Source of the DNA: Thermodesulfobacteriota bacterium
GTDB lineage: Bacteria > Desulfobacterota > Anaeroferrophillalia > Anaeroferrophillales > Tharpellaceae
Assembly: GCA_024762675.1 (NCBI GenBank)
Contig: JANTGZ010000001.1
Span: 14,322-78,321 of the forward strand
DNA: 64,000 nt
Reading direction: 5' to 3'
How positions within the stretch are numbered: the first letter of the stretch is position 1; every line of letters begins with the position of its first letter. A program made the position numbers and the translations under genes. This document shows, in pieces, positions 12,468-64,000 of the stretch. The notes below the pieces were generated by a model. That model was not told where the DNA came from, did no database searches, and worked only from the letters and a program-made list of their open reading frames with translations.

Positions 12468-13502
<1,035 letters not shown>

Positions 13503-43073: not shown

Positions 43074-44492
43074 GTGGGGGGAGCGGTGTCGAAAAGATCT
43101 TCAAAGGCAGATTTAGAGTCAGCTCTGAAGTTTTCTCATCTGATTATCGACAGTATTCACAACGGTGTCATTGTGACAAATGCCGAAGGAAAGGTTATCT
43201 TTTTTAATAAACCCTACGGTCGTTTTTTAGGGATTGATCCAGCTGCCCAGATTGGCAAACATGCAACTGAGGTTATTGAAAATACTCGCATGCATATCGT
43301 TGCCAAGACTGGTAAGGCTGAGATCAATAAAGCCCATCGTATGAAAAACCAGGATATGGTGGTTCAGAGAATTCCGATTAAGAAAAATGGCAAAGTGATA
43401 GCGGTTTTCGGTCAGGTGATGTTTAAGGATGTTGGTGACGTGCGCAAGTTGGCAGATCGTCTCTCTCTGCTTGAGAGCAAAGTCAAGCTTTACGAGGAGG
43501 AGATATTCTCTCTGCGTTCGACTCGCTATACCTTCGATAGTATTATTGCCGAAAGCTCGGTTATGGAGCAACTTAAAAAAGAGGCTTTAAAGGCGGCGGC
43601 GACGGCTCTGCCGGTTTTGATCACCGGGGAGTCTGGAACCGGCAAAGAGATGTTTGCCCAAGCCATACACCACGCCAGTAATCGTCGAGTTCATCCTTTT
43701 GTGCGGATTAATTGCGCTTCTATCCCGCGAGAGTTGCTCGAAGCTGAACTTTTTGGCTACGAGAAGGGGGCTTTTACCGGGGCCCGCACCTCAGGCAAAC
43801 CAGGTAAATTCGAACTGGCTAACCAGGGCTCAATCTTTCTTGATGAGATTGGGGATATGCCTCTTGAAATGCAGCCGAAGTTATTGCGGGTTCTTGAAGA
43901 GAAAGAGTTTGAAAGAGTCGGGGGGATTTCATCGATCCGTTCAGATTTCCGACTTATTGCCGCGACCAATCATATCCTGGCTGAAAAAGTGGCAAGCGGT
44001 TCTTTTCGGGCTGATCTCTACTACCGCCTGAAAGGTATTCCTTTAGTTATTCCACCGTTGCGAGAGCGCCGCGAAGATGTTATCTTTCTAGCTAGAAGCC
44101 TCCTGAAGCAGATGGTCCAGGATTCATTTATTCCTGAGATCTCTTTAAGCTCCGAGGCGGCCAATGTCTTGCTCATGTATGACTGGCCCGGTAATGTGCG
44201 GGAGTTGAATAATGTCTTAGGCCAGATTCTTGCAACTATTGAACGTGACGTTATTGAATTGGACGATCTCCCTTTTTATCTGCGTAAGCAGCCGGGGCAA
44301 CCTGGAGATCAAGGGCCCGGAAAGAGCTTGGCTGAGATTATGGCTCAAGTGGAGCAGAAAACTATTAAACAAGCTCTGGACCTGGCGCATGGGAATAAAA
44401 GTATGGCGGCTCGCCAACTCGGTATCCATCGTACCCTTCTCTATAAAAAGATGAAGCGGCATGGCATGCAGGTCTCAACCGAGAATGGTTAG
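43074..44492 (+). CDS. sigma-54-dependent transcriptional activator with N-terminal PAS domain
   Basis: PAS domain, then AAA+ sigma-54 interaction domain (GESGTGKE; GAFTGA), C-terminal Fis-type HTH. Divergent from the SDR/TRAP/lactate block. Confidence 0.88.
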   Translation: MGGAVSKRSSKADLESALKFSHLIIDSIHNGVIVTNAEGKVIFFNKPYGRFLGIDPAAQIGKHATEVIENTRMHIVAKTGKAEINKAHRMKNQDMVVQRIPIKKNGKVIAVFGQVMFKDVGDVRKLADRLSLLESKVKLYEEEIFSLRSTRYTFDSIIAESSVMEQLKKEALKAAATALPVLITGESGTGKEMFAQAIHHASNRRVHPFVRINCASIPRELLEAELFGYEKGAFTGARTSGKPGKFELANQGSIFLDEIGDMPLEMQPKLLRVLEEKEFERVGGISSIRSDFRLIAATNHILAEKVASGSFRADLYYRLKGIPLVIPPLRERREDVIFLARSLLKQMVQDSFIPEISLSSEAANVLLMYDWPGNVRELNNVLGQILATIERDVIELDDLPFYLRKQPGQPGDQGPGKSLAEIMAQVEQKTIKQALDLAHGNKSMAARQLGIHRTLLYKKMKRHGMQVSTENG

Positions 44493-46588: not shown

Positions 46589-49162
46589 TTAGTTTCCAGC
46601 CGGCAAAGCGTCAAGCATTAAATTGTCGCCAGAACCGTTATTCTGAAAACCGACGATTTCATCGGTTGCCGAGTAGGTGACAAAGGTCGCTTCGTTCAGC
46701 TCTTCGCTGTCGGGAAACAGTTCTTCGACCATGTCGACAAATTTTTCACCGGGGGTCAGGGTCATCAGCGTTGACCCAGACCCGACAATACTGCCGTCGT
46801 CTCGTCGTGCCTTAAGTTCTACGTTGACACTGCTGGTGCCGGGGTTGACGAAGGCGATGCCGGTCCAACCTTGATGGTCGATTTTCGGAAAAACTCCTTT
46901 GCTGGCACTTATGCCGACTCCGGTGTAGCCCCCGAGCTGAGCCCCAAAAGAGAATAGCTCAAAGCCGGTGATGCCGCTGTTGGCCTCAATTTTAAGCCAG
47001 TCAGTGCCGCTCGGCAGGCCGAGCTGGGACGCCAGGCCGATGTATTTCTTTACGCCGGCTTCCATCTCAACGTTTATCGCTGTAAGGGCAGTTCCGTCAC
47101 TTTGATAGGGTGTTACCGTGAAATGATCGTTGGCCGCAGTCGGATCGTAAGCTACGATTCCGGTCCACCAGCCGTTGTCACTGGCAATATGAGGGTAGAT
47201 GATGGTTGTCGTGAGCTCATTTTTGAGCAGGATGCCGCTCATCTGTAACGGGGGCGGACCGCTGGTGCCAAAGAGTTCGAGGCCGACAATGCCGTCGGCA
47301 TTTTTGATTTCTGCTGAATGGATATCGGGTTGTGAAATACCGTCGAAAAGTTGGGCAATTGTGAATGCCTGGTGGGTGCCGGCGGCCATGCTGACAGTTT
47401 TACTTGATCCGTTATCAAACTGTATCGTCAGGTTTTTGGTTTCCGTGGTGGTGTTGACCAAAGAGATTCCGGTCCACCAGCCGGGGAGGCTGGCAACATG
47501 AGAAATATAGAGAGACCCACTGTTGACTTCGGCCACTGTTGGTACTGCAACCCGGTAACCGCTGACCTGGTGCGAGAATTTAGTGTAGCCGGTTATGTCG
47601 TCGGCGGTAGTTGCAAAGACGATAAATCCGATTTGGGAGGGGTTGCTCAGTTCAGTGCCGACTGTTATCTGGCGCCGGGCCATTGTGTTTAAATTTATAG
47701 TTATGGGTGTGCCGATCTGATAGCCGGCATCACTGTAACTGATAAGTTGACCGCTGACGGCAGTTTCTCCAGTGTTGATGAGGGCTATTTCAGTCTCCCA
47801 GCCGCTATGGCTGGCGACGTGGGGGAAATAGATGCCGCTGGCAATAGGAGGCTTAGCAGCACTGTCAAAAAGATAGGCCGCCCCAGTCATGTCATCTTGT
47901 TCAGGTACCCCGACAAGGGCGTCACGGTTGCTGCTGATGTCGGCTGAAGCACCAAAAAAATCAAAATTATTAGCGTCGCTCGCCGTCAGCTTCTCCTTGA
48001 TGCCCCAATTGTTGCTGCCACCTTCATTACGTTCCAGTATATAAGCGGCTCCATTTGCTGTTCTTGGACCTAAGGTGTCGTGTCCCTGGGCGCCAACTAT
48101 TGCATAATCTCCGGCAATGCCAATCGATGTGCCGAAGTAATCAAGGGCAATGCCATCATTACTTGTGACTTTTTTAAGTTCTCCCCAGGAATTTGTACCG
48201 CCATTGTCTTTCTGATAGATGAATACAGCGCCGGCGCTCGAACCGTTAGGGTTGTTGTCGTTTGGACTTCCTGCTAAGGCAAATTCTCCGGAGATGGCAA
48301 CCGCAGTAGCAAATTCGTAGTAGGCAGCCCCGTCACTGGCGGCTAAGTCGGCGACTTTGCCCCAGTTATTACTGCCGCCCTGGTTACGGTTGAAAAGGTA
48401 GGCGAGACCGGAGTCGATACCGCTGTCATCAGTGCCAGGAGCTCCAACTACAGCATTGTCACCATCAAGGGCAACTGCGAAGCCGAAATTTTCAGCCCCT
48501 TCAAGGTTGAATAGGGTGGTGACACTGATTTTGCTCTCCTGCCCCCAGTTGTCATTGCCGCCTTGGTTGCGGTAAAAAATATAGGCGGCCCCAGCATTGG
48601 TGGTGTTGTCATCATCGCCCGGCATGCCAACAATAATGCGGTCGCCAGAGATTCCTACAGCGGTGCCGAAACCATCATCAGCATTGCCCTGGTCGGCTAC
48701 AAGTTTTTTAACTTGACTCCAGCTATCGCCCTGGCCTCGGGCAAATACAAAAGCTGTTCCCGAGGCGGAGCCGTTGTCGTCGTCTCCAGGAGCGCCTATG
48801 ACTATAAAATCGCCGGAAATAGCAACTGTCCAACCGAAAGCATCTCCGGATGCCCCATCACTAGCAGTGATTTTGCTTAACTGCCCCCAGTTATTACTGC
48901 CCCCCTGGTCGCGGGCAAAGATAAAAGCGGCTCCAGCCCCGGAGCCCTTATCATCATCTCCGGGTACGCCGACCACAGCATAGTCACCGGCAATAGCCAC
49001 CGCGTGACCAAAACTGTCGTCATCGGAGAGTCCGGTTGCGGCCAATTTGTGCTCAGTGGCAGAGACAGTGAGGGATGTGCAGACAAGGATTGTTGTTGCA
49101 ATAAACATCATTATTGCCAGGCGATAAAAGTTCTTCATGGTTTTACTTCCTTCAGAGTTCAT
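46589..49162 (-). CDS. large secreted FG-GAP/integrin-alpha-like repeat protein with a C-terminal array of unassigned ~100-aa repeats
   Basis: Signal peptide. ~8 repeats of (GD..VVG.PGDDD.GS.AGAAFIF.R.QGG.NNWGQ). Then 4 repeats containing [Y/F]PH[IV]AS..GWWTGI. Confidence 0.7.
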   Translation of the reverse strand: MNSEGSKTMKNFYRLAIMMFIATTILVCTSLTVSATEHKLAATGLSDDDSFGHAVAIAGDYAVVGVPGDDDKGSGAGAAFIFARDQGGSNNWGQLSKITASDGASGDAFGWTVAISGDFIVIGAPGDDDNGSASGTAFVFARGQGDSWSQVKKLVADQGNADDGFGTAVGISGDRIIVGMPGDDDNTTNAGAAYIFYRNQGGNDNWGQESKISVTTLFNLEGAENFGFAVALDGDNAVVGAPGTDDSGIDSGLAYLFNRNQGGSNNWGKVADLAASDGAAYYEFATAVAISGEFALAGSPNDNNPNGSSAGAVFIYQKDNGGTNSWGELKKVTSNDGIALDYFGTSIGIAGDYAIVGAQGHDTLGPRTANGAAYILERNEGGSNNWGIKEKLTASDANNFDFFGASADISSNRDALVGVPEQDDMTGAAYLFDSAAKPPIASGIYFPHVASHSGWETEIALINTGETAVSGQLISYSDAGYQIGTPITINLNTMARRQITVGTELSNPSQIGFIVFATTADDITGYTKFSHQVSGYRVAVPTVAEVNSGSLYISHVASLPGWWTGISLVNTTTETKNLTIQFDNGSSKTVSMAAGTHQAFTIAQLFDGISQPDIHSAEIKNADGIVGLELFGTSGPPPLQMSGILLKNELTTTIIYPHIASDNGWWTGIVAYDPTAANDHFTVTPYQSDGTALTAINVEMEAGVKKYIGLASQLGLPSGTDWLKIEANSGITGFELFSFGAQLGGYTGVGISASKGVFPKIDHQGWTGIAFVNPGTSSVNVELKARRDDGSIVGSGSTLMTLTPGEKFVDMVEELFPDSEELNEATFVTYSATDEIVGFQNNGSGDNLMLDALPAGN

Positions 49163-49361
49163 GTTGTTTTACTTCGTTATGTTTAAATCATACTCTTTAA
49201 GTTTACTATACCACAAAGGGCACCGAGATCACAGAGAAAAAATGATTCAATTTTCTCCAGTTTCCAGGTGCCCTTGATTCGCTGCTCTTGATAATAAATA
49301 TTTTATTAAATATTTAATTTTTCGGTTGGAGTCTCTTCTGCTTGGCTTTGAGCCGGCCGGT

Positions 49362-51281
49362 TTATGGCAGGGGGAGGGTGATGGTAAATGTGGTGCCCTT
49401 GCCGGGTGTGCTTTTAACTGAGATGTTACCATTATGTTGCTCGATAATTCGATGTGCGATGGCCAGACCGAGGCCGGTGCCCAGGCTCTTGGTTGTAAAG
49501 AAAGGGTTGAAAATCGATTCCAGATCGGTTTTGTCAATACCCGACCCGGTGTCGCTGATTTCGATGGTTAAGTAGCAAATCTTAGGTGCACAGTAGATGG
49601 TTTCCGCAGTCGTATCTTGAGCATTTTCCGGCCACTGGGTTCGTATAGTCAGGTTGCCATTGTCTTCGGTAGCATCAAGGGCATTGATGATGATGTTGAG
49701 TAATACCTGTTGCAGGAGACCTTTATCGCCCTTAATTTGTGGTTGTCGGTCAGGTCCGTGGTTAAGTTCAAGGGTGATATTTTTCTGGCCAATTCTATTG
49801 GAAACCAGAAAAAGGGCATTGTCGATAACATCTTTGATGGTTAGAGCTTCGAACTTGGGATTACTGGGTCGGGCAAAACGAAGAAGATTTTTTATGAATT
49901 CATCAAGCCTTTTTACCTGGCTGAAGACCTCGTTGAAAATCTCTTGGTTAGGATCCTGTTTGTCAAAGTTTTTACCGATTATCTGGAGGGCTGCGGCGAT
50001 ACCGGCCAACGGGTTGCGGATTTCATGGGCGATGCCGGAGGCCAGTTCTCCCAGGGAAGCCAGGCGGTCCATGCGCGCCAGATTAGTTTCCATCTTTTTG
50101 CGTTGGGTGATGTCGATAAACATGCAGCTTAGGCCGGAGGTCTCTCCCTCCTTGTTTGTGATATTTGAAAAACAGACTTCAGTAGGTAACCTGGTCTGGT
50201 CGGCGCAGATCAGGTCAAACTCAGATAAGTATCCGGTTTTCTGGTCGATACCTTTGCCGCCACCGCTGAAAATTTCTCGGATTTCCTCCTCTTCAGCACT
50301 GAACAGGTCTATTAGTGAAGTACCGACCAGATCTTTTACTGAATGTCCCAGCAGGATACTGGCAGAATTATTTGAATGGGTGATTTTCAGGTTGGTATCG
50401 GCTGTAATCAGGCCGATTCTTAGGCCCTGGATGATGCTTTCATAGAAACTTTTAAGTTCTTCATTCACTTCCAGGTGTTGGGAAAGTTCTTTATTCTGGC
50501 GGGCGATCCGCATTACCATTTCGTGATGCTTCATGGCTCGGCCGATGGCCATCGCTGAGTGGGTGACGATGGCTGTGGCCATGCGGGCCTCTTCGTAACT
50601 GACCGGTTTGTCGCTTTCAGGTTTGTCGGCCAGAACGTAGCCGTAGAAGTTATGATCATCACAGATCGGGATGATCAAAAAAGCGGTCGCATTACCGATC
50701 ATGGACTCGATGGTTTCGTCATGCTGGTAGTAGGTCAGGATTGAATAATGGCGAAAGCGGCCTTCATTGCTCAGCAGTTTGTCGAAGGCGCAGGCCTTGT
50801 CCACTCCTTTAAAACAGACATTGATGTTCTGTCTCTGTTTACGGCCTTGACGGCCACGGAAATTATCTTTGAAGATTCCGCATTTGACTTCAAGTGAGTT
50901 GGGCTGCAACTCTTCTTCTGTTTTTTCTGAAGGTTTTGATTTTATAACATTTAACGGTTCTCGATCAGCATAGGCTCTTTTCAGTAAGCCATTTACCTGG
51001 GCAAAGGGGACATTGATTTCCTGAGCGCTGTCAAAGCCATAGCTGGCCCGGCTTTCGAGGTTTTTGTCCTGCTGGTCATAATAGAGTACTACAAGGCGCT
51101 CCAGATCGGTGGTGCTGATGATATCTTCAGCAACATGGTTTAATAGAGTGTCGACGACATCAGCCCGAGCCATGCGGGTGACGCTGCGGTAGAGATAGCG
51201 AAGATCCTGTACGCGCTGGTCGCTATCTTCCATTGTCGTTTGATCGCTCATGAGATCACTTTTGTCTTGTGGTGGGCACAA
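49362..51281 (-). CDS. cytoplasmic sensor histidine kinase with GAF/PAS sensory domains
   Basis: HisKA H-box (HEIRNPLAGI) and HATPase_c (G-boxes DTGSGI; GTGLGLAI). No TM segment. Confidence 0.85.
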   Translation of the reverse strand: MCPPQDKSDLMSDQTTMEDSDQRVQDLRYLYRSVTRMARADVVDTLLNHVAEDIISTTDLERLVVLYYDQQDKNLESRASYGFDSAQEINVPFAQVNGLLKRAYADREPLNVIKSKPSEKTEEELQPNSLEVKCGIFKDNFRGRQGRKQRQNINVCFKGVDKACAFDKLLSNEGRFRHYSILTYYQHDETIESMIGNATAFLIIPICDDHNFYGYVLADKPESDKPVSYEEARMATAIVTHSAMAIGRAMKHHEMVMRIARQNKELSQHLEVNEELKSFYESIIQGLRIGLITADTNLKITHSNNSASILLGHSVKDLVGTSLIDLFSAEEEEIREIFSGGGKGIDQKTGYLSEFDLICADQTRLPTEVCFSNITNKEGETSGLSCMFIDITQRKKMETNLARMDRLASLGELASGIAHEIRNPLAGIAAALQIIGKNFDKQDPNQEIFNEVFSQVKRLDEFIKNLLRFARPSNPKFEALTIKDVIDNALFLVSNRIGQKNITLELNHGPDRQPQIKGDKGLLQQVLLNIIINALDATEDNGNLTIRTQWPENAQDTTAETIYCAPKICYLTIEISDTGSGIDKTDLESIFNPFFTTKSLGTGLGLAIAHRIIEQHNGNISVKSTPGKGTTFTITLPLP

Positions 51282-51349
51282 TTGTCAGTATGTTCAGAGT
51301 TCAGTTTTTTTGGTTTAACTCTAAACATACTGAACTCTGAACGGTAAAT

Positions 51350-52126
51350 TTACAGATTCAGATTGTGTGCGGTGCTGTGGCACTCTCCGCAAGTCGGGAA
51401 TTTCTTCATGATGCCAGGTGAATGCGGGACGCCATGGCAATCCTGGCAGGCCGGAACCATTTTGTGCTTCTCTTTGTGGCAAGCGGCGCAGGATAGAGCA
51501 TGGTGTTTAGTCGTACTGGCAGTCAGCTGGCTTAAAGCTTCATCGTGACATGAGCCGCAGCCCTCCGATGGCGTGGCGTCGTTGTAGACCACGACCAGGG
51601 GTTTATGGGCCTGATGACACTGGGCACAATCAGCCTGAACCATGGTTTCGCCGTGGGGTTCGTGACAGCTTACGCAGAGTGGTATCTGAGCATGTTCCTG
51701 GTGACAGGCGGTACATGCCATGGTTGTATGGAAGCTTTTGTTTTCCTGGAGTAGGGTTCCCTGTTCCTGGTGGCAGGTCAGGCAGGCCCCGGTGATATCC
51801 TTGGCTAGCTGCAGAACCAGGGGCATATGAGGGTTGTTGTGGCAGCTTAGGCAGTTTTCCAGTTCATAATGGGATTTGCCACTGTGACAGCTGTCGCAGG
51901 TGGGGATGTTTTCGCGAACAGTGGGGGGGTGGCCTTCGTGGCACTCCATACAGGTCACTGCTGTTTTATGGGCTCCGCCCTGGGCTTCAATGTCGGCCGG
52001 AGGCTGGGTGTGGCACTTGATACAGTCATCATTGCTGAGTTCGGCTGCCAAGCTTAAAGATGTGAAAGTCAGGATCAGCCCAGCGCTGATTATAAGTGCC
52101 ACCAGGATTGTCGTCAGCCTTTTCAT
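51350..52126 (-). CDS. dodecaheme c-type cytochrome (c7-type polymer-like), periplasmic
   Basis: Signal peptide plus 12 CxxCH motifs counted in 258 aa, many as CxxCHxxH. Confidence 0.9.
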   Translation of the reverse strand: MKRLTTILVALIISAGLILTFTSLSLAAELSNDDCIKCHTQPPADIEAQGGAHKTAVTCMECHEGHPPTVRENIPTCDSCHSGKSHYELENCLSCHNNPHMPLVLQLAKDITGACLTCHQEQGTLLQENKSFHTTMACTACHQEHAQIPLCVSCHEPHGETMVQADCAQCHQAHKPLVVVYNDATPSEGCGSCHDEALSQLTASTTKHHALSCAACHKEKHKMVPACQDCHGVPHSPGIMKKFPTCGECHSTAHNLNL

Positions 52127-52493
52127 GTTTTTTTCTCCCCATTTTTAACAGTTTAAAATAATTGTTTTTATAAGAAATCCGCACTATTAAAAAATATCCC
52201 CAAACTCAACAGCAATGATTGTACCTTGATGATTCCATGTTTAAATTTACTCTGGAGATCCTTTTTCGAAAGTTTTATGTTTCAGTTGCAGCTATGCTTT
52301 TGCCCTCAATCTTATTTTTATAGACTCTCTTATTGGGCTTGGCATTCAAAACGATATGATGTATTAAATTACGCCACCACTCTATGCCATATGACCCATT
52401 CGGGTTAAATGCCGCAGTGCGTAGATGTTTGAGGACTATTATTTTATTGGCTTACGTGGCTTTCGCATAAATATTGCTAGGCTATAACGGTTT

Positions 52494-52613
52494 AGTGCCT
52501 TACAGAACATTTTCTTGTTTTTTTTAACAAGAAAATGTTCTTATAAGAGCACTTATTTGCGGGCCGATAGGGCTTGGTTGGATTGCGGGATTGTTCCCCG
52601 CATTAGATATTTC
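52494..52613. repeat. copy B of ~110-bp intergenic palindromic repeat element (REP/MITE-like)
   Basis: Contains the perfect 15-bp inverted repeat gaacattttcttgtt/aacaagaaaatgttc and the gcgggattgttccccgc hairpin. About 90% identical to 8986-9091. Confidence 0.7.
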
Positions 52614-52703
52614 ACATGAGTATGTTACGGTTGATTTTTGTTTCCCCTCTCTGCTACATTAATATATAGTTAAACAGTCAACTTTTCTGGAGGTAAGACG
52701 GGA

Positions 52704-54116
52704 ATGTCAAGTAAACGGGTTCTGGTTGTCGATGATGAACACCTGATACGCTGGTCTTTGGTCAGGGCCCTTGATGAAGCGGGATATCAAGTTGAGGCGG
52801 CAGAGACCGGAGCCGAAGCTCGCACTAAATATCGCGATTTCAGGCCTCATGCGGTGCTTCTTGATATATGTTTGCCTGATGCTGTTGGGACTGATCTCTT
52901 GAAGGAGTTCAAGGCCGATGACAAAGATTTAGTTGTCATTATGATCACAGCCCATTCCGATGCCGACTCTGCCGTCAGCGCTCTCAAGATTGGGGCTACT
53001 GATTATGTCGGTAAGCCTTTTGACCTCGAAGATGTCCTGCATTCAATTGAGCAGGCTCTTGAAAAACAGCGGCTACAGGATGAAAATGCCTATTTTCGTC
53101 GAGTCCTTAAAGATAAAATAGAACGTGACAACCTGGTTGGTAACTGTCCAAAAATGATCGAGGTCTATAAGCTTATCAAGATTGCGGCCGATGCCGATGC
53201 CAAAACTGTTCTGATTACCGGCGCCAGCGGTACCGGTAAAGAGTTGGTTGCCCGGGGAGTCCACATGCACAGCTCTCGTTCGAAAGAGCCTTTTATAGAT
53301 GTCAATTGTGCCGCCATTCCTGAATCACTGTTGGAAAATGAACTTTTTGGTCACGAACGAGGAGCCTATACAGATGCCTCCCAGAAGCAGAAAGGTATTT
53401 TTGAGATGGCCGGGGGAGGCACTGTTTTTCTTGATGAGATTGGAGATATGCCTATCGGTATGCAGGCCAAAGTTCTGAAAGTGATTGAAAATCGGAGTTA
53501 TCGGCGCCTCGGTGGCGATAACGATGTCCTTTCCGATGCCCGGATTGTGGCTGCGACCAATCAGGATCTAACAAGCATGGTCAAGGAAGGGAAATTTCGC
53601 GCAGATCTTTTTTACCGCTTGAATGTGATGCCCATCAAACTGCCTTCTCTGGTCGAGCGGAAAATGGATATTCCTCAACTGGCGGCCTATTTCATCAACC
53701 GTTTTAATGAAGAGTATGGTCGTAATATTGATGGGGTTGATGCTCAAACTATGCATCACCTTATGTCATATGACTGGCCCGGTAATGTTCGTGAGCTCCG
53801 TAATGCCATTGAACGGGCGATGATGCTCGAGCGTGGCAGCAGTCTCACTTCACAACATTTCAGCTCGGAAATTATTAATGCCGGCAAGTCTGCAGAGGGT
53901 AGCAGCGCTGATGAAGCTACGGCTGAAGATGATTGCTTCTCCTTTGGACAGGTAAAGCTGCCCAAAGATGGAATCTCTCTCGAAGAAGTTGAAAAACAGC
54001 TCATCCAGATGGCCTTGAAGCGTTGGAATGGTAATCAGACCAAGGCTGCCGAATGCCTGCGCATGAGTCGAGATACTTTGCGCTACCGGATGAAGAAATT
54101 CGGTCTTCCGAAATAG
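52704..54116 (+). CDS. sigma-54-dependent response regulator (NtrC family: receiver + AAA+ + HTH)
   Basis: Receiver (VLVVDDEHLIRW...D) plus sigma-54 activation domain (GASGTGKE; GAYTDA) plus C-terminal HTH. Confidence 0.9.
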   Translation: MSSKRVLVVDDEHLIRWSLVRALDEAGYQVEAAETGAEARTKYRDFRPHAVLLDICLPDAVGTDLLKEFKADDKDLVVIMITAHSDADSAVSALKIGATDYVGKPFDLEDVLHSIEQALEKQRLQDENAYFRRVLKDKIERDNLVGNCPKMIEVYKLIKIAADADAKTVLITGASGTGKELVARGVHMHSSRSKEPFIDVNCAAIPESLLENELFGHERGAYTDASQKQKGIFEMAGGGTVFLDEIGDMPIGMQAKVLKVIENRSYRRLGGDNDVLSDARIVAATNQDLTSMVKEGKFRADLFYRLNVMPIKLPSLVERKMDIPQLAAYFINRFNEEYGRNIDGVDAQTMHHLMSYDWPGNVRELRNAIERAMMLERGSSLTSQHFSSEIINAGKSAEGSSADEATAEDDCFSFGQVKLPKDGISLEEVEKQLIQMALKRWNGNQTKAAECLRMSRDTLRYRMKKFGLPK

Positions 54117-54214
54117 CTTTTCAGTTTATTGTTTTAATAGAAGCACCACAGAGAACACAGAGAAAAACTTAATTTTGCCTTTTTGGTTCCGGCCTTGCCG
54201 GATTGGGGATAGGT

Positions 54215-55573
54215 ATGAAAAATCATAAAATTATCTTTCATTTTGCGAGGCTGATCAGTTTTTTTGTTATTGTGATTTCGCCTCTTTTTTTTACGCAATC
54301 GATTTTGGCCGCCTGTCTGACCAGCTCCTGTCATCAGCAATTAAAAACTTTTGCCCAACTTCACGAGCCTTTGGTTGAAGGAGAGTGCCAGGCCTGTCAC
54401 GAGCGTGTGGTTGAAGAGCATCCCTTAAAAAAAGGGTCAAGTTTCAAATTGGTCGCTGATGGGGCAGCCTTGTGTCTTGAATGTCATGACGCTTTTGATC
54501 CAGCCTCCGGTAAGCTTCATGATGCTGTGGCTGAGGGTGAATGTTTGGCCTGTCATAACCCCCATGGCAGTAACGGTGACGGTCTGTTGCAGGCAGGTGG
54601 CGATCTTAAAGTGATCTGTTTCGAGTGCCATGACGGAACTCCTTTTGCACAGGAATTCGTCCATGGTCCGGCTGCAGCCGGGGTTTGTCTCGAGTGTCAT
54701 GATCCTCACCAATCAAATAATGAGGCGCTCCTACTGCATGATTCCAAATCTTTATGTCTACGTTGTCACGCTGACCTGGCTACAGGCCTGGAAGATGCAA
54801 CCGTCATTCATGCACCTCTAAATGATGAAGCTTGTAACTCCTGCCATGAAGTCCACGCTAGCCCTTTTGCTCATCTTCTTAAAGGGGATGGCCCCAAATT
54901 CTGTTTTTCCTGCCATAAAGAGCTGGCTGACAAATATAATAAGGCCGGTACTAAACACACTGCTCTCTATAAGGATGGTCGTTGTGGTAATTGTCACGCC
55001 CCCCATTTTTCAAGTTACGCAGCCTTGCTGCCGGAACGTGAAAGTGATGTCTGTCTGCGCTGTCATGGCAAGGATGATTTCCATCGTTCGAAGGCCTTGA
55101 AAAATATCCGTACCGAACTGACCGAAAAAGAGCATCTGCACGGCCCCTTGAACGACGGAGACTGCTCAGCTTGTCATGATCCGCACGGTTCCGACTTCTA
55201 TCGGCTCCTGGTTAATGACTATCCTGAAAGTTTTTACGCTCCCTATCGTAAAGGGACTTACGCTTTCTGCCTTAGCTGCCATGAAGAGAATCTTCTGCGT
55301 TTTCCGGAGACCTCCATCTATACCCTTTTTCGGGATGGCAAACGCAACCTGCACTACACCCATGTTGCTGACCCTCGCAAAGGCCGCAGTTGTCGGGCCT
55401 GTCATCAGGCTCATGCCAGTAACGGCCCCAAGTTGGTAAACGAGGATGGGGCTCCTTTTGGGAACTGGAAAATCCCTCTGCGACTGGTCCTGACCGAGAC
55501 CGGCGGCAGTTGTTCTCCCGGTTGTCATCGTCGCATGTCTTACGATCGTAAAAATCCTGTAATAAAAAAATAG
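54215..55573 (+). CDS. periplasmic multiheme c-type cytochrome (13 CxxCH + CxxxCH + Cx4CH)
   Basis: Start at ATG 54215 (the track's upstream TTG is unlikely). Signal peptide. 13 canonical CxxCH motifs. One CSPGCH near the C-terminus and one CLTSSCH near the N-terminus. Confidence 0.88.
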   Translation: MKNHKIIFHFARLISFFVIVISPLFFTQSILAACLTSSCHQQLKTFAQLHEPLVEGECQACHERVVEEHPLKKGSSFKLVADGAALCLECHDAFDPASGKLHDAVAEGECLACHNPHGSNGDGLLQAGGDLKVICFECHDGTPFAQEFVHGPAAAGVCLECHDPHQSNNEALLLHDSKSLCLRCHADLATGLEDATVIHAPLNDEACNSCHEVHASPFAHLLKGDGPKFCFSCHKELADKYNKAGTKHTALYKDGRCGNCHAPHFSSYAALLPERESDVCLRCHGKDDFHRSKALKNIRTELTEKEHLHGPLNDGDCSACHDPHGSDFYRLLVNDYPESFYAPYRKGTYAFCLSCHEENLLRFPETSIYTLFRDGKRNLHYTHVADPRKGRSCRACHQAHASNGPKLVNEDGAPFGNWKIPLRLVLTETGGSCSPGCHRRMSYDRKNPVIKK

Positions 55574-55900
55574 TATTAAACAGTTCAACGTTCAAAGTTA
55601 AAAGTTCAGGGTTAAGGTCAAAAGCAAGTTTAAGGGCAAAAGCAGTGCAAAAGTCAAACTCGGAGCTGCTTTGGCCTTTTTTTCTCATCGAGAAAACTTA
55701 AACATTGAACTTTGAACTGCCTGAGCGATATCCCCCTTGTGCCTGACCGTTATGGTGGGGTAAGTGCCCCACTTGGGTGTCGACCAGTTCTCAGGGGCTT
55801 TTTGCCGGCTTTTTATGTTTCTCAAGCGGTCTCTTTAAACTGTTGAATATATTTGCTTTTTTAAAGTTGTAGTGCTCTTTTTCACTGACTTTATGAATTT

Positions 55901-55916
55901 TGGCACAATATATGCT
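55901..55916 (+). promoter_or_regulatory. candidate sigma-54 (-24/-12) promoter TGGCAC-aatat-ATGCT
   Basis: Perfect -24 TGGCAC with correct spacing to a GC-containing -12. Lies ~160 nt upstream of the tetraheme cytochrome start. Palindrome GTGGGGtaagtGCCCCAC at ~55758-55775 upstream could be an activator site. Confidence 0.45.
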
Positions 55917-56078
55917 CTCTGTCATTATAGATTTGCTTAGATCAGCATTTTAAGTTGTTTTAGGTCTTTTGGGGAAGATCTTGATTTTTGAAATGTTGCG
56001 ATAAAAAGACTGCACGTACAACTGGAAAAGAGAGTGGGAGCTTAACAACAAATAAATATGCCTGAGAGGAATATAATT

Positions 56079-56759
56079 ATGAAGAGATATATGATAATTT
56101 TCTTGTGTGTTGCCGCCCTGGCTTTTACTGCCACGCAGGTTTTAGCTGGTGCCGCACCCGGAACCGGGATTGTCGGTTCTAAACATGATATGAATGTTGT
56201 TTCTAATCCGGATAGCCAGAATCGTGTCTGTGCTTTCTGCCATACCCCGCATCACGCCCTTGATGATGCTTCGGCCGATTATCTGCCTTTGTGGTCGCAT
56301 GAACTTACCAGTCTAACCTACACTGACTATAGCTCAATCACATTTGATGGTGCCGGATTCCCGGCTGGTGATACCTTGACCGGTCCTTCCCGTCTCTGTA
56401 TGAGCTGTCATGATGGTGCGGTCGCGGTTGACCAGCATTATGGCGGCATTGGTACTGACGTCCGTTCCGGTGACAGCTGGGGTGAAATCGGCGTCGGCGC
56501 CGGTGGTGACTTGAGCAATGACCATCCGATCGGTTTTGATTACACCGCGATTGCCGGTGTGGTTGATGATGAGATTCGTTTGGCTACAACTCCGGTTGCT
56601 AATCCCAGTGTAAACACGATTACCGAACTGTTGTGGGATGACCAGTGGATGACTTGTGCCTCCTGTCATGATGTTCATAACACTGATGCCAACGAAGACT
56701 ATTTTCTCTATGGTCCGCAGGCTAACTCCGATTTCTGCCTGATCTGTCACGACAAATAA
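56079..56759 (+). CDS. tetraheme c-type cytochrome, secreted
   Basis: Start at ATG 56079 (MKRYMIIFLCVAALAFTATQVLA signal). Four CxxCH motifs (CAFCH, CMSCH, CASCH, CLICH). Confidence 0.85.
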   Translation: MKRYMIIFLCVAALAFTATQVLAGAAPGTGIVGSKHDMNVVSNPDSQNRVCAFCHTPHHALDDASADYLPLWSHELTSLTYTDYSSITFDGAGFPAGDTLTGPSRLCMSCHDGAVAVDQHYGGIGTDVRSGDSWGEIGVGAGGDLSNDHPIGFDYTAIAGVVDDEIRLATTPVANPSVNTITELLWDDQWMTCASCHDVHNTDANEDYFLYGPQANSDFCLICHDK

Positions 56760-56790
56760 TAACCTTTTAAATTAGTCCAGTCACGATAAA

Positions 56791-56824
56791 GGCTGCCGGT
56801 AGTATCTGCCGGCAGCCTTTTTTA
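56791..56824 (+). terminator. Rho-independent terminator (ggctgccgg-loop-ccggcagcc followed by a T-run)
   Basis: Perfect 9-bp GC-rich stem followed by T6, directly after the tetraheme cytochrome stop. Confidence 0.8.
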
Positions 56825-56878
56825 GGTTGCGTAAAAACTTGAGTAAATGGTATAGTTATTAAAATAACAAAACCGATT

Positions 56879-58003
56879 ATGGAGTTGTCGATGCCTGTAG
56901 ATGTTGTCGTAAACCGTCCTGGTTCGATTAGATTGGCCTTTTTGCTGGTTCTTATCTTCTTCCTCTTGTTGCTTTTTTCTGCCTGTACCGGCCCTGAGGT
57001 GGTTCGTCCTCAAGGTTCGGTTTTTTTCCCGCCGGTTCCCAACCCCCCCCGGGTTCAATACCTGACCCGGATCTCCAGTTCAACCGATGTTGATGGTAAA
57101 AAACTGGGCGGGCTTTCAATTATTGCCGTCGGAGATAGCCGGGCTGAAAAACCCAAACCTATCATTAAGCCCTATGGAATTACCGTGCGTGATGGTAAAC
57201 TATATGTCTGTGATACTTCACCCGGGCGTCTGATTGTCATCGATCCGGCCCGTAAGACTTTTGAATTTTTGAAAGGTAACTACAGTTTCGGTAAACTGAA
57301 AAAACCGATTAATTCAGCCTTAGACAGTGAAGGCAACCTCTATGTTGCCGATACCATGCGCAAAGAGGTGCTGGTTTATGGTCCGAGTGGCAGCTTTCTG
57401 CGCGCCTTTGGTAAAGGTCTCGAGATGAAACCGGTCGATGTTGCTATCGATGGTGACTATCTTTATGTTCTTGATCTCAAGAATCATGATATCAAAATAC
57501 TTGATCGGAAAAGTGGAAAGCTATTGGAAACTATTGGTAATGATTCTGATAATAAACACCTTTTGTCGATGCCCATCAGCCTTGATACCGATCCCAAAGG
57601 CAGCATCTATGTCTCCAATATGACTTCCGGTAAAATTATCAACTTGGATCGTGATGGTCACCTGCTGGGTGAATTCGGCAAACTTGGTGATGGTTTTGGC
57701 CAGTTCGGTCGGCCCAAAGGTTTGACGGTGGATGACCAGGGGCGTATCTACGTCGTTGATGCGGCCCATCAGAATGTTCAGATTTTTAATAAAGATGGCC
57801 GGCTGTTGATGTTTTTCGGTGATCCCGGGCTTCCTTTTGGCTCCCTCAATTTGCCGGCTGGGATTGCAGTTACCTCTGAAGGGATTGATCTTTTTAAAGA
57901 ATATATCGATCCCGCTTTTCAAGTTGAGCAGCTGATTTTCGTTACCAGTCAGTTCGGTCCGGCCAAGATCTCGGTTTATGGACTCGGAGAACTGAAAAAC
58001 TGA
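56879..58003 (+). CDS. NHL-repeat (six-bladed beta-propeller) lipoprotein
   Basis: Signal plus lipobox (LLFSAC). Repeated NHL motifs (GNLYVADT; GSIYVSNM; GRIYVVDAAHQNVQIFNKDGRLL). Confidence 0.8.
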   Translation: MELSMPVDVVVNRPGSIRLAFLLVLIFFLLLLFSACTGPEVVRPQGSVFFPPVPNPPRVQYLTRISSSTDVDGKKLGGLSIIAVGDSRAEKPKPIIKPYGITVRDGKLYVCDTSPGRLIVIDPARKTFEFLKGNYSFGKLKKPINSALDSEGNLYVADTMRKEVLVYGPSGSFLRAFGKGLEMKPVDVAIDGDYLYVLDLKNHDIKILDRKSGKLLETIGNDSDNKHLLSMPISLDTDPKGSIYVSNMTSGKIINLDRDGHLLGEFGKLGDGFGQFGRPKGLTVDDQGRIYVVDAAHQNVQIFNKDGRLLMFFGDPGLPFGSLNLPAGIAVTSEGIDLFKEYIDPAFQVEQLIFVTSQFGPAKISVYGLGELKN

Positions 58004-58040
58004 TTACTGCGGAATATTTTACAGTGATTTTTTAATAAAT

Positions 58041-58093
58041 ACCACAGAGAGCACAGAGGATGGTTTTCTCTGAGACCTCTGTGCTCTCTGTGG
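58041..58093 (+). terminator. perfect 19-bp inverted repeat hairpin (accacagagagcacagagg / cctctgtgctctctgtggt), terminator/REP-like
   Basis: Read from the sequence. Located directly after the NHL gene. The half-site motif accacagaga(g/a)cacagag recurs at ~54143. Confidence 0.6.
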
Positions 58094-58123
58094 TGAAAAA
58101 TATGTGGTCTAAAAACCATTTTT

Positions 58124-58729
58124 ATGGTCAATTTATTTAAAAATTGTCGAATTATTTTGTTGATCGGCTCTCTGGCCGTGGTTTTCTTTCTTGCCGGTTG
58201 TGATGCCACTGCCCGTTATAAGGTCTTAACGACGATATTTGACGGGGTGCCAAGCCCGATTCCGCCGGAAAAAGTCCTTGAGGAGTATTATGCTAAACGG
58301 CTTCAGGCCGAACGCGATGCAGCTGCCGGCAAAGTTTCAGCCGACGCTTCGACCGGGCTTTTGCATGTTTCCAAACATCTTCCCTATACGCAAAAAAAAT
58401 GTAAGGATTGTCACGATTTCAGCACCGCAGTCGGCCTTATCCGGCCGCCTAGAGAGCTCTGTTTTGTATGTCATCGCAAGTTTCGTGACCATATTCGTGA
58501 ACCCTTTGTTCATGGTCCGGTTGCAGTTGGTGACTGTTCTGCCTGTCATCTGCCGCACTCTTCTGAAAACACCTCTCTGCTGGAGCTTGATCGGAATAAA
58601 ATCTGCGATAAATGTCATCATGAAGAGCGCCTTGCGGTCGAGATGCATGATAAAATTATGACCCACGGTATGGCCTGTGTTGATTGTCATGACGCCCATT
58701 ACGGCCAAGCCCGCTACTTTCTCAAATGA
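58124..58729 (+). CDS. pentaheme c-type cytochrome lipoprotein
   Basis: Signal plus lipobox (FFLAGC). Five CxxCH motifs (CKDCH, CFVCH, CSACH, CDKCH, CVDCH). Confidence 0.85.
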   Translation: MVNLFKNCRIILLIGSLAVVFFLAGCDATARYKVLTTIFDGVPSPIPPEKVLEEYYAKRLQAERDAAAGKVSADASTGLLHVSKHLPYTQKKCKDCHDFSTAVGLIRPPRELCFVCHRKFRDHIREPFVHGPVAVGDCSACHLPHSSENTSLLELDRNKICDKCHHEERLAVEMHDKIMTHGMACVDCHDAHYGQARYFLK

Positions 58730-58752
58730 TTATCTATTCAGGAAGAGTGTAG

Positions 58753-60735
58753 ATGCGGCCGACCCTGGTTATTTTATTCTGCCTGTTAACGGCTCAACTC
58801 ATGCTGGCTGGTCAATCGCAGGCTCGGGCTCTTTTTATGATCCGGGATTTTCGTAACTGGCTTGAACTTGAATATGAGTATGAAGGTTCCAGTTCCGATA
58901 GTGCCGGCAGCAATCAGGATCTGACGGAACAGCAGTTATGGGAGACCTACCATTTTGAGATGGCTTACGCTATCTATAGCCCACGTTGGCTTAACGGCCA
59001 TTTTGAGGTCGATCTTGGCTTTCTGCAGGAGTGGTATGACGGCACCAGTGACGGTTCCGGCTCCGATAACGACTTTGTTCTCGGTTACCGTCTGGATGGT
59101 ATTATCTTGGATCGTAAATCTTTTCCCACAACGTTTTTTGCCGAGTCGGAGAGTACTCGGGCCGACCGCCGTTTCGCCCGTAATTACGATCTGCAAACTG
59201 AAAACTATGGTATCGCTACAACCTACAAAAATCGCTTTGTACCGGTTCACTTAAGCTATTTTTCCAACCGCAGTGAAACTGACGGGCTCGAACTTGATCG
59301 CGAGATTACAACCGAGACCTTTTCGGCAGATCTCTCCCACCAGACTGATGATGGCTTCAGCCTTAGTGAAATAAACTATTTCTATACCGACGACAAAACT
59401 TCATTTTCCGGTTCTCAGCCCTCAGATAAAAATAATGTCGAGGAGTATTTTCTCCGTAATTCACTGACCTGGGGAGAGCATCTCAAGCGCAGCTACTTTA
59501 TCTCCAGCTATCGTTATCGTGAGGAAGAGGGCAGTAATCCGATCAAATCTACGGACTGGTTTGAAACTATTGACTGGCGACCGGGACTTGCCCTGCGCCT
59601 GGGACTCGAATATCAGTTCAGCAAAGATGAAACTGAAACTTTAAATCGTAAAGATAACCGCTATCGGGGTTGGATCGAGCATCATCTTTATGAGAGCCTT
59701 ACAACCTCCGCCCGGGCCAGTAGCCGTAACCTCGAATTTGACGGCGGTAGCGAAGATGAGAACGGTTTTGTTTTAAGTCTTTCCTACCGTAAAAAATTAC
59801 CGGCTGATTCCTATTTTACCATGGGCTATTCCTACGGATATGAAGAGACCGAGCGGGACTTGGATGATAACCTGTTCTTCGTCGTCAATGAGGAGATGAT
59901 TGTCGATCTCTTTGAGAGAAACCTCTTAAATAATCTTGATGCTGTAGCTGAAACCATTGTTGTTTACAATGAGGATCGACTCATTACCTATGTTGAGGGA
60001 GCCGATTACACAATTGAACAGGTTGGTCGCGAAACCGAGATTATTATCCCCTCCGGCAGCCTTATCAATGAAGGAGACAAACTTTCGCTCGACTATGAAT
60101 ACCTGGTTAACCCTGACATCGATTTTTCCACTACCGTCCATCAGGCCAGTACAACTTTAACCCTTTTTGACCGTCATTACCGAATCTATGCCAACTATGT
60201 CAATTCAAAACAGAAATTACTCTCTTCGGCCGATGATCCGGATCTTTATGACAGTCTCTACAATCTTGAGACCTGGACTGTCGGGGCTGAAGGCGAGTGG
60301 AACTATGTGACTTGCGGCCTCGAGTACACAGATTACAACTCAACCACCGATATTCGCCAATATCTCGAAGGTTTCATTAATTATAGACGCTATTTCAGGC
60401 GTAATTTTATCTTTTTTTACCTGCGTGATCGCATAACCAGCCATGATGATTTGGATAATGGTACTGACAGTAATGGTGGCAGTGAAAATGTTCTGACCAC
60501 CGGTTTTCAGTATAAGCGAAAATTCCCGCTTGGGGCGATCGGTGAAGTCAACCTCGATTATTTAAACCAGAGCGGTCGTAGTAACGACCGTCAGGAACTC
60601 GATCTCGAAATAGCCTATCAGCTTCGGGTTGGGAAGCTTGTCTTTGAAGCCAGCATTGAAGAGGAGTGGGCCTGGACCGATAATCGCGATGAACGTAATG
60701 ATAAGGTTATGTTCAGAATCCGCCGCTACTTTTGA
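58753..60735 (+). CDS. putative large outer-membrane beta-barrel protein (porin-like; candidate conduit component)
   Basis: Cleavable signal (AGQSQA). 660 aa rich in Y/D/N/G/T with amphipathic alternating stretches (GFVLSLSYR; YFTMGYSYGYE; LEIAYQLRV). C-terminal ...RIRRYF ends in Phe, the OMP signature. No Cys pairs or enzymatic motifs. Confidence 0.5.
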   Translation: MRPTLVILFCLLTAQLMLAGQSQARALFMIRDFRNWLELEYEYEGSSSDSAGSNQDLTEQQLWETYHFEMAYAIYSPRWLNGHFEVDLGFLQEWYDGTSDGSGSDNDFVLGYRLDGIILDRKSFPTTFFAESESTRADRRFARNYDLQTENYGIATTYKNRFVPVHLSYFSNRSETDGLELDREITTETFSADLSHQTDDGFSLSEINYFYTDDKTSFSGSQPSDKNNVEEYFLRNSLTWGEHLKRSYFISSYRYREEEGSNPIKSTDWFETIDWRPGLALRLGLEYQFSKDETETLNRKDNRYRGWIEHHLYESLTTSARASSRNLEFDGGSEDENGFVLSLSYRKKLPADSYFTMGYSYGYEETERDLDDNLFFVVNEEMIVDLFERNLLNNLDAVAETIVVYNEDRLITYVEGADYTIEQVGRETEIIIPSGSLINEGDKLSLDYEYLVNPDIDFSTTVHQASTTLTLFDRHYRIYANYVNSKQKLLSSADDPDLYDSLYNLETWTVGAEGEWNYVTCGLEYTDYNSTTDIRQYLEGFINYRRYFRRNFIFFYLRDRITSHDDLDNGTDSNGGSENVLTTGFQYKRKFPLGAIGEVNLDYLNQSGRSNDRQELDLEIAYQLRVGKLVFEASIEEEWAWTDNRDERNDKVMFRIRRYF

Positions 60736-61301: not shown

Positions 61302-61386
61302 TTGATACAGGGTTAACCTTCACTCTGAGTGGTCAAAATTAAAAAATTAAAATAAACGTGGTCCGAACTTTGCTCTATTGTGATCT

Positions 61387-62807: not shown

Positions 62808-62864
62808 CCTTAAACTCCAAACCCCGAACTTTAAACTTTGAACTGTCCCAAATAGAGTAATGTT

Positions 62865-63905: not shown

Positions 63906-64000
63906 ATGCATTCGTAAAAAGTTTGAGATCACTTTGAAACGTCATTCCGGCGAAAGCCGGAATCCAGTAAATTCAACGACTTCTGGATACCGGATCAAGT

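Follow-up and report, generated by a model that had tools for sequence, protein, structure and literature searches.

How a cell decides when to make cytochrome nanowires is poorly defined, and the locus described here raises the question of whether a sensor kinase and a sigma-54 activator encoded beside a nanowire gene could take this decision. The locus lies in a 64,000-nt stretch of DNA from a Thermodesulfobacteriota bacterium (contig JANTGZ010000001.1, positions 14,322 to 78,321), hereafter called the window. A sequence-only reading of the window had described a split two-component system around a dodecaheme (12-heme) cytochrome gene, and had proposed that a histidine kinase and an NtrC-type activator act on a tetraheme cytochrome gene by way of a sigma-54 promoter preceded by a palindromic enhancer. 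The comparative evidence reported here supports this core. The tetraheme gene is, by homology, an omcE homologue, and we consider it likely that the locus holds the control module of an OmcE-type nanowire cluster, in which the kinase would act on the activator, the activator on tandem dyads, and these on the sigma-54 promoter of omcE. Judged from domains, motifs and gene order, the sensor kinase and sigma-54 activator beside omcE very probably switch it on. The circuit is of an ordinary type; its target, the OmcE nanowire gene, is new.

The cytochrome cluster and its two regulatory genes

Homologous loci were collected by scanning an OmcE alignment against species-representative genomes, and 76 of 161 OmcE loci were kept; the family as a whole counts more than 7,400 matches. 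The closest loci are L001 (95% amino-acid identity), L002 and L003, from uncultured relatives, and L004, from Candidatus Tharpella aukensis. The genes of the window that concern us are the following.

46589-49162, minus strand: FG-GAP repeat protein
49362-51281, minus strand: sensor histidine kinase (open reading frame; the likely true start is ATG 51251, which is the start in orthologues)
51350-52126, minus strand: periplasmic dodecaheme c-type cytochrome of 258 aa, with a signal peptide and exactly 12 CxxCH motifs
52704-54116, plus strand: NtrC-family sigma-54 activator (Response_reg, Sigma54_activat, AAA_lid_14 and HTH_8 in Pfam)
54215-55573, plus strand: ~14-heme cytochrome (13 CxxCH and variant motifs, seven Paired_CXXCH_1 repeats; a 452-aa product on a public contig)
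56079-56759, plus strand: omcE homologue (tetraheme, 4 CxxCH)
56879-63905, plus strand: OmcE-cluster accessory genes (from Pfam, heme counts and synteny with L001-L004 and Desulfuromonadales clusters), in the order NHL propeller lipoprotein, 5-heme lipoprotein cytochrome, 660-aa putative outer-membrane barrel, 189-aa membrane protein, 7-heme cytochrome, 203-aa membrane protein and second NHL propeller

The protein that the sequence-only reading had called a tetraheme cytochrome matches over its full length the OmcE filament of Geobacter sulfurreducens (PDB 7TFS, E=5.9e-23), a structure reportedly described by Wang et al. in 2022, and it also matches a second filament entry (9yuq, 8.4e-20). All four of its CxxCH motifs are invariant in the OmcE alignment, and so are the distal histidines H43, H65, H156 and H207, which align with histidines in 7TFS. 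By homology the protein is an OmcE homologue, a cytochrome nanowire subunit. Its true start is 56079, since in L001 the ATG further upstream is not in frame.

The arrangement of the kinase and regulator genes on opposite strands, with the 12-heme gene between them, was confirmed by the map of open reading frames and by domain scans. The layout of the window is identical in L001-L003, with the FG-GAP, kinase and 12-heme genes on one strand and the activator, 14-heme, omcE, NHL, 5-heme and barrel genes on the other. At the more distant locus L008 (OmcE 68% identical) the 12-heme, kinase, activator, 14-heme and omcE genes all lie on one strand, and only 33 nt separate kinase and activator. Because both genes are adjacent and on the same strand in L008, the split layout is a local rearrangement (inversion) of an ordinary kinase-regulator pair.

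The regulator is indeed built as an NtrC-type sigma-54 activator, with a receiver domain (PF00072, 2.7e-27, residues 6-115), an AAA+ domain (PF00158, 4.8e-66, residues 144-312, followed by AAA_lid_14, 1e-26) and a C-terminal Fis-type helix-turn-helix domain (PF02954, 9.8e-16, residues 425-466). Residues D10, D11, D54 (in LLD) and K104 of the receiver can be read in the translation, D54 being the predicted phospho-acceptor, and the Walker A and B motifs are present as GASGTGKE and FLDEIG. Its best NCBIfam matches, AtoC (448.6 vs 714) and NtrC (432.8 vs 558.6), are both below the equivalog cut-off. In 20 loci, which span Ca. Tharpella relatives, Malonomonas (M. rubra), Desulfuromusa, Desulfuromonas and Geotalea/Geobacter, orthologues of the activator (51-88% identity) are encoded on the omcE strand, 1.6-4.7 kb upstream of that gene, and in 16 of these loci the 14-heme gene stands between activator and omcE. 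The 14-heme gene is probably co-transcribed with the activator, as only 25 nt separate the two genes in L001. A different kinase-activator pair, whose activator is 35-38% identical, is located directly upstream of other OmcE paralogues in L009, L028, L047 and L061; as these pairs differ, sigma-54 activators seem to have become linked to OmcE-family genes on more than one occasion.

The kinase had been described as a cytoplasmic GAF/PAS histidine kinase. Its PAS (1.3e-11), HisKA (PF00512, 1.9e-13) and HATPase_c (PF02518, 3.6e-27) domains were found by Pfam, while the GAF part of the description is unproven, as its match (E 0.0055) reaches 17.7 bits and falls below the 22.4 cut-off. A profile of the N-terminal domain retrieved only 3oov from the PDB, with E=0.24. 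Its cytoplasmic location is taken from a reading of the sequence by eye, in which no hydrophobic membrane segment is evident. The H-box AHEIRNPL is invariant in orthologues, as are five cysteines, two in the N-terminal domain (C124, C146) and three in the PAS domain (C349, C360, C376). The best NCBIfam match of the kinase is AtoS, with 297.6 against a cut-off of 646, hence below equivalog level. The cytochrome gene upstream of it, which matches Cytochrom_c3_2 and Cytochrome_C7 in Pfam, is syntenic in L001-L003, L008 and L017; it is the first gene, and the kinase gene the second, of an operon divergent from the activator.

Predicted promoters and enhancer sites of the two control regions

Two intergenic regions hold the candidate control elements, one in front of omcE and one between the 12-heme and activator genes. 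All 64,000 nt were scanned on both strands (128 kb).

55722-55737, unstranded: candidate distal enhancer site TGAGCGATATCCCCCT, left half degenerate
55755-55772, unstranded: candidate proximal enhancer site GTGGGG-TAAGTG-CCCCAC, with 6-bp arms and a 6-nt spacer, its centre ~140 nt upstream of the -24 GG
55836-55851, unstranded: putative bending site resembling those of integration host factor (IHF); reverse strand ATTCAACAGTTTA vs WATCAANNNNTTR, one mismatch
55901-55916, plus strand: predicted sigma-54 promoter of omcE, TGGCAC-N5-ATGCT (TGGCACAATATATGCT), one mismatch to TGGCAC-N5-TTGCW
52211-52226, minus strand: sigma-54-like -24/-12 element AGGTACAATCATTGCT, 84 nt upstream of the 12-heme gene, with a non-canonical -24 half
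52383-52416, unstranded: candidate enhancer pair of the 12-heme/kinase promoter (52383-52398 and 52401-52416); in the window the pair is degenerate, its two sites taking ranks 5 and 12 among 64,000 positions under the enhancer matrix described below
52631-52660, plus strand: sigma-70-like promoter of the activator gene, TTGATT-N18-TACATT, a consensus match only

The -24/-12 element of omcE had been noticed from the sequence, and it is present exactly at 55901-55916. With an approximate weight matrix that we built ourselves, it receives the best sigma-54 score of the window on either strand (15.1 bits). The sequence-only reading had placed sigma-54-like promoters in front of downstream cytochrome genes more generally, with two weaker TGG-N8-TTGC strings close to start codons, and had itself doubted these two. 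Both strings exist as written (54184-54198, TGGTTCCGGCCTTGC; 61359-61373, TGGTCCGAACTTTGC), and the doubt was right: they rank only 69th and 11th, the former is not conserved in the aligned relatives nor the latter in the L007 alignment, and both are most likely chance matches. The simple pattern TGGCAC-N5-TTGCW, with up to 2 mismatches, has 33 matches in the whole window against 32.2 expected, and since this count equals chance the pattern alone proves nothing.

The case for the omcE promoter comes from position and conservation. The expectation of finding such a site in one given 250-nt upstream region is 0.001. In the alignment of the omcE upstream region, a TTGGCAY-N5-ATGCW block occupies the same place in L001-L004. 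Moreover, in the 75 loci with enough upstream DNA, where the best site within 400 nt upstream of the OmcE homologue was taken, a sigma-54 site of at least 12 bits was found on the forward strand in 47 and on the reverse strand in 3, typically 115-210 nt from the start codon. This asymmetry indicates that the sigma-54 promoter is a conserved feature of the OmcE gene family, and together with the conservation in L001-L004 it backs the promoter proposed for the tetraheme gene. Transcription of omcE is predicted to start near 55927. An RpoN promoter had been predicted upstream of G. sulfurreducens omcE by Leang et al. in 2009 (promoter 47, TTGGCGTGCTGTTGCA; PMC2725144, Additional file 4).

The palindrome proposed as an enhancer is real and conserved; it lies 3 nt to the left of the position first given, and its arms are 6+6 and not 6+7, a mis-transcription. 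Within it L001-L004 all share TGGGnTAnGTGCCCCA unchanged, and L004 has it in duplicate. At the distal site, ~30 bp upstream of the proximal palindrome, L001 has a perfect dyad, GGGGGATATCCCCC; its counterpart in the window is the degenerate GAGCGATATCCCCC. When 24 loci were inspected, dyads of this kind, usually paired, were seen upstream of the sigma-54 promoter. A symmetric weight matrix for this upstream activating sequence (UAS), trained only on loci outside the clade of the window and with the consensus TGGGGSATATSCCCCA, ranks 55756-55771 third and 55722-55737 fourth of the 64,000 positions; these two dyads are 34 bp apart, and the -24 element follows them at ~140-175 bp. Of 32 loci kept out of the training, 14 exceeded the 95th percentile of background 200-bp windows, where 1.6 were expected. 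Conservation and the match to a consensus derived from other clades thus support the palindrome as a binding site of an enhancer-binding protein, as far as comparison of sequences can. Furthermore, OmcE loci come in two layouts: omcE either is followed by the first NHL propeller gene, as in the window, or has the propeller, barrel and 5-heme genes on its upstream side. Loci of the second layout have sigma-54 promoters and no dyad motif, which suggests that the motif is specific to the clusters of this activator family. Between enhancer and promoter, TAA-N6-GAATATA is invariant in five aligned sequences, and 55836-55851 could be an IHF site.

A similar arrangement precedes the 12-heme gene. The element AGG(A/T)ACAATCATTGCT on the minus strand is invariant in L001-L003, 61-84 nt from the 12-heme gene; in the promoter block AGGAACAATCATTGCT is likewise invariant in these three loci, and L008 has AGGTATAATAATTGCT. 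The dyad block of this side is near-perfect in L001-L003 (17.5-19.5 bits; TGGGGCATATGCCCCA in L003), compared with 10.1 bits for the copy in the window. It is ~160-170 nt upstream of the -24 element in the window, L001 and L003, and ~360 nt in L002, which has an insertion. An equivalent arrangement of dyad and promoter is present at the 12-heme side in L008. We lean towards the view, on these sequence features, that the activator also drives the divergent 12-heme/kinase operon. On the opposite side of the same region, the activator promoter block GTTGATTTTTG...CTCTCTGCTACAT is conserved in the alignment of the 12-heme/activator intergenic region. The window and L001-L003 share a conserved near-palindrome, CGCAYAAATATTGC, upstream of the activator promoter (52464-52477); this sequence looks like a sigma-54 site with CG in place of the -24 GG. 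Next to it, at 52479-52600 and between conserved blocks of the control region, the window alone has a ~120-nt insertion; L001 and L003 lack it, and an insertion in L002 is unrelated and sits elsewhere. The ~120-nt insertion includes a perfect palindrome whose arms are 16 nt long (52504-52541), and it could be a small mobile or hairpin element.

The elements could work together as follows. The soluble kinase, with its GAF-like and PAS domains and five invariant cysteines, would sense an intracellular cue, possibly related to redox, and phosphorylate D54 of the divergently encoded activator, which itself would be transcribed from its sigma-70-like promoter together with the ~14-heme cytochrome. 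The phosphorylated activator would assemble on the tandem dyads at 55722-55737 and 55755-55772, the IHF-like site would bend the DNA between dyads and promoter, and the AAA+ domain would open the sigma-54 promoter at 55901-55916. The expected product is a monocistronic omcE mRNA that starts at ~55927, carries a leader hairpin and ends at a strong terminator, with the downstream assembly and secretion genes served by their own sigma-70-like promoter. Action of the activator on the divergent 12-heme/kinase operon would add positive feedback.

Several points weigh against this circuit, and three of its parts can be read otherwise. In this organism the circuit is predicted from sequence, and rpoN is not in the 64-kb window. 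The single-sequence structure model of the sensor domain was unusable (predicted local distance difference test score, pLDDT, of 31.5). The sigma-54 contact loop of the activator is GAYTDA (residues 220-225) and not the canonical GAFTGA; this loop is kept in nearly all activator orthologues of at least 50% identity, across several orders, and Phe-to-Tyr variants of the GAFTGA loop can be active. At the 12-heme gene the -24 half is AGGTAC, which is non-canonical, and a sigma-70-like TTTAAA-N16-TACAAT overlaps, for which reasons the sigma-54 assignment of this promoter is tentative.

For the omcE promoter, the -12 half is ATGC and not TTGC. Sites of at least 15 bits occur somewhere in 26 of 60 shuffled windows (43%), so that the -24/-12 match alone is within chance for 64 kb. 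The match could then be fortuitous, with omcE transcribed from a sigma-70-type promoter (e.g. TTGGCA-N17-CATTAT) and the activator serving other targets; an overlapping sigma-70-like match does exist at 55900-55928 (9/12, with TG). Yet GG-N10-GC, with TGGCAY and TGC, does not vary among L001-L004, unlike the putative -10 hexamer; the strand asymmetry holds across the family, an RpoN promoter of G. sulfurreducens omcE had been predicted independently (PMC2725144), and the activator and its site co-occur with the promoter. We regard this alternative as highly improbable.

For the enhancer, the seeds of the matrix were chosen by eye, the distal omcE site and the 12-heme-side sites of the window are degenerate (11.1, 10.1 and 8.7 bits), and no single UAS score in the window exceeds the best in shuffled sequence (mean maximum 13.5 bits); the case for the enhancer is therefore built on clustering, position and conservation. 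The GGGG-N6-CCCC dyads might instead be small RNA or DNA hairpins left from termination of the 14-heme transcript, or operators of an unrelated repressor. Their place is indeed downstream of the 14-heme gene, folding is possible for a G4/C4 dyad, and the symmetric change to ATGGGG...CCCCAT in L001 would preserve a hairpin as well. Such an origin is nevertheless quite improbable: no T-run follows the dyads and a separate terminator-like hairpin lies upstream of them; in many clades they are paired at an enhancer-typical distance from the sigma-54 promoter; the divergent region, in which no gene ends, has the motif too; and the AT-rich centre (ATAT or AAAT) is kept, as expected for a protein site. 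The motif also tracks the layout in which omcE precedes the first NHL propeller, and is absent from the other layout despite its sigma-54 promoters.

The place of the kinase is the third part. Most Desulfuromonadales loci have no kinase beside the activator, so that the partnership is supported only in the window's own clade. The activator could control omcE while the kinase at 49362-51251 is not its dedicated partner, their linkage being a lineage-specific accident and another kinase, or none, acting in its place. In Malonomonas, Desulfuromusa and Desulfuromonas no kinase homologue stands beside the orthologous activators, all that L040 and L065 show is a distant kinase-core match ~2 kb away, and the two genes are on opposite strands in the window. 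We find this alternative unlikely, as the kinase is syntenic in L001-L003, as it directly precedes the activator on the same strand, at 33 nt, in L008, and as the 12-heme/kinase operon has the same type of enhancer as omcE.

The predicted omcE transcript and its leader hairpin

If omcE is expressed from its sigma-54 promoter as proposed above, its transcript would be bounded and structured by the following elements.

55962-55981, plus strand: leader RNA hairpin AGGTCUU-UUGGGG-AAGAUCU, within the predicted ~152-nt omcE 5' untranslated region
56788-56826, plus strand: strong intrinsic terminator directly after omcE (15-bp stem, 9 GC pairs, T-run)
56827-56856, plus strand: sigma-70-like promoter of the assembly operon, before the NHL gene, TTGCGT-N18-TATAGT (TTGCGT at 56827-56832, TATAGT at 56851-56856), with an extended -10 (TG upstream)
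55632-55686, plus strand: terminator-like hairpin and T-run after the 14-heme gene, nested in a longer GTTCAAAGTT inverted repeat (55581-55719)
51292-51342, minus strand: intercistronic stem-loop between the 12-heme and kinase genes, made of GTTCAGAGTTCAG repeats, an inverted repeat with 20-nt arms and 90% complementarity

The terminator of omcE is kept in L001-L004 with compensatory changes, and the block of the assembly promoter, GGTTGCGTAAAAACTTGAGTAAATGGTATAGT, is nearly invariant in the aligned relatives. As the terminator follows omcE directly and is itself followed by a separate conserved promoter, omcE appears to be a monocistronic unit and the assembly genes to be transcribed separately. 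Since the assembly genes have a sigma-70-like promoter of their own, sigma-54 control would cover omcE itself and not the downstream cytochrome genes generally.

The loop of the leader hairpin, Y-U/G-GGGG, and the closing CUU/AAG are kept from the clade of the window to Malonomonas, Desulfuromusa, Geotalea and Geomonas, and the changes in the outer stem are compensatory. In a covariation test on 20 sequences, picked by their loop only, 81% of the stem cells were pairing compared with 66.5% in shuffles, and the covariation score was 0.49 vs 0.23, a value that none of 500 shuffles reached; slid registers scored lower. Under a strict definition the hairpin has 33 instances in 2.6 Mb of loci, and 16 of these are in omcE leaders where 0.22 would be expected, a ~70-fold enrichment. 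All 16 sit between the upstream promoter region and the OmcE homologue, and a sigma-54 site of at least 12 bits lies no more than 120 nt upstream of the hairpin in 14 of them; L060 has a site of 11.5 bits, and none was found in L056. Beyond the window, the hairpin is present in L001 (9889-9906), L005 (2045-2068), L017, L018, L019, L022, L024, L031, L038, L040, L055, L056, L060 and L065.

An Rfam scan of 49000-64000, with E up to 1, returned nothing apart from one noise match, which means that no known riboswitch explains the omcE leader. RNAalifold, run on whole omcE leaders, found this one hairpin only and no larger shared structure. The leader hairpin may be a new cis-regulatory RNA, possibly an mRNA-stabilising or protein-binding element. 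It is conceivable, and we put it forward tentatively, that the activator, the enhancer pair, the sigma-54 promoter and the UUGGGG-loop hairpin together make up a dedicated and previously undescribed master switch of OmcE, from Ca. Tharpella relatives to Desulfuromonadia, in which the hairpin, as a new cis-regulatory RNA and either a protein target or a stability element, would add post-transcriptional control of subunit supply.

The sequence-only reading did not contain the OmcE identity, the distal enhancer site, the enhancer and sigma-54-like promoter of the 12-heme operon, or the sigma-70-like promoter of the assembly genes. The covarying leader hairpin, the conserved omcE terminator and the separate sigma-70-like assembly promoter are new in this analysis.

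Known systems and neighbouring features

In Pseudomonas, Myxococcus and Geobacter, the two-component pair PilS-PilR controls the type IV pilin gene pilA through sigma-54. The circuit proposed here is like it in pairing a histidine kinase with an NtrC-family activator, in using a sigma-54 promoter, and in having as its target a short, highly expressed gene that encodes an extracellular filament's subunit. It differs in that PilS is membrane-bound whereas the kinase of the window shows no membrane segment when its sequence is read, in that the target is a tetraheme cytochrome and not a pilin, in its enhancer sequence, in the GAYTDA loop of its activator, and in the predicted co-transcription of its kinase with a 12-heme cytochrome. 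NtrB-NtrC at glnAp2 and AtoS-AtoC are alike in domain architecture and tandem upstream activator sites, and the IHF-like site between enhancer and promoter has counterparts at many sigma-54 promoters; the proteins of the window, however, score well below the equivalog cut-offs of these families, and the proposed regulon is unrelated to nitrogen or acetoacetate.

A further parallel is BccR (GSU0598) of G. sulfurreducens, a REC/AAA+/HTH (helix-turn-helix) activator of the sigma-54-dependent cbcBA operon with experimental support (bioRxiv 10.1101/2021.04.15.440034). There too an activator is divergent from a sigma-54-dependent cytochrome operon for extracellular electron transfer. The target of BccR, however, is an inner-membrane bc-type quinone oxidoreductase and that of the present activator a surface filament subunit; the operon of the present activator holds a 14-heme cytochrome, and a kinase is linked to it. 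The circuit of the window, in turn, is predicted from sequence. Promoter 47 of G. sulfurreducens omcE (PMC2725144) has the same kind of -24/-12 element upstream of an OmcE gene; it was predicted by PromScan in a single species and had neither an activator nor an enhancer assigned to it, whereas here the promoter is seen family-wide, with a syntenic activator and a dyad.

The composition of the cluster matches the published minimal OmcE cluster, which comprises OmcE, two multiheme cytochromes, two beta-propeller lipoproteins and a large beta-barrel (bioRxiv 10.1101/2025.10.22.684050). In the window the barrel is putative, and a kinase, an activator, a 12-heme cytochrome, two small membrane proteins and a 7-heme cytochrome are added; the host is a Ca. 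Tharpella relative and not a member of the Desulfuromonadia. Sigma-54 is nowhere mentioned in that report, and regulators appear once only, among glycosylation genes (bioRxiv 10.1101/2025.10.22.684050). No regulator or enhancer of OmcE clusters, including a PilR or other sigma-54 activator of omcE, was found in the literature searched, which treats the structure and gene content of these clusters, though an earlier description may exist; the sole hint of sigma-54 for omcE was the one-species promoter prediction of 2009 (PMC2725144).

If the proposed module is true, it names an activator family, its DNA site, its promoter and a conserved leader RNA. Since all four parts recur in the culturable Malonomonas rubra, Geotalea and Desulfuromusa, regulation of the OmcE filament can be tested directly, and the parts would be on offer for controlled nanowire expression. 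As two-component circuits with an NtrC-type activator and sigma-54 are textbook knowledge, the finding is useful rather than surprising.

Among the accessory genes, NHL repeats are present at 56879-58003 and 62865-63905, with the lipobox-like motifs LFSAC and LAAC, and the further multiheme cytochromes of the cluster include 54215-55573 and 58124-58729. The 660-aa protein, a putative outer-membrane barrel, has a signal peptide and the C-terminus ...RRYF. Neither Pfam nor NCBIfam assigned it to a family, and its homologues (22-68% identity) occupy the equivalent place in other OmcE clusters. The two small membrane proteins, at 60732-61301 and 62196-62807, flank the 7-heme gene, the second with a weak HAMP-like match (E=0.049); L004 and L007 have both, L002 and L003 neither. 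In L002 (15709-16341), L007 (8000-8581) and L018 (9648-10220), a divergent second gene of OmcE type (30-35% identity) is found 3' of the second NHL propeller gene. As the window stops at 64000, right after its second propeller gene, such a paralogue may lie just beyond it.

Elsewhere in the window, a second activator gene (43074-44492, plus strand; PAS/AAA+/HTH_8) is divergent from an operon for an SDR protein, a TRAP transporter (DctPQM), LarA and an FAD-oxidase. The region upstream of this operon holds TGGCCTGCTTGTTGCT at 42830-42845 on the minus strand, the 4th-best sigma-54 match of the window. A second activator gene that faces an operon with such a site makes it evident that the organism uses sigma-54, and this example indicates that the sigma-54 matrix picks out sensible sites. 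A one-mismatch sigma-54 consensus, TGGCGCAAGACTTGCA, is also found at 13589-13604 on the minus strand, ~87 nt upstream of mreB (12468-13502, minus strand), and could be due to chance; the idea of a mirrored cytochrome cluster around this site was rejected, as the region encodes mreBCD, PBP2 and rodA.

Finally, heptamer repeats of the form GTTCARR form long hairpins in the intergenic spacers of the cluster, at 51292-51342, 55581-55719, 62832-62843 and 49150-49161. The family is enriched in the window, with 10 matches against 1.4 expected, and similar repeats are present in L001, 3' of its 14-heme gene. They look like an intergenic element family of the repetitive extragenic palindrome (REP) kind.

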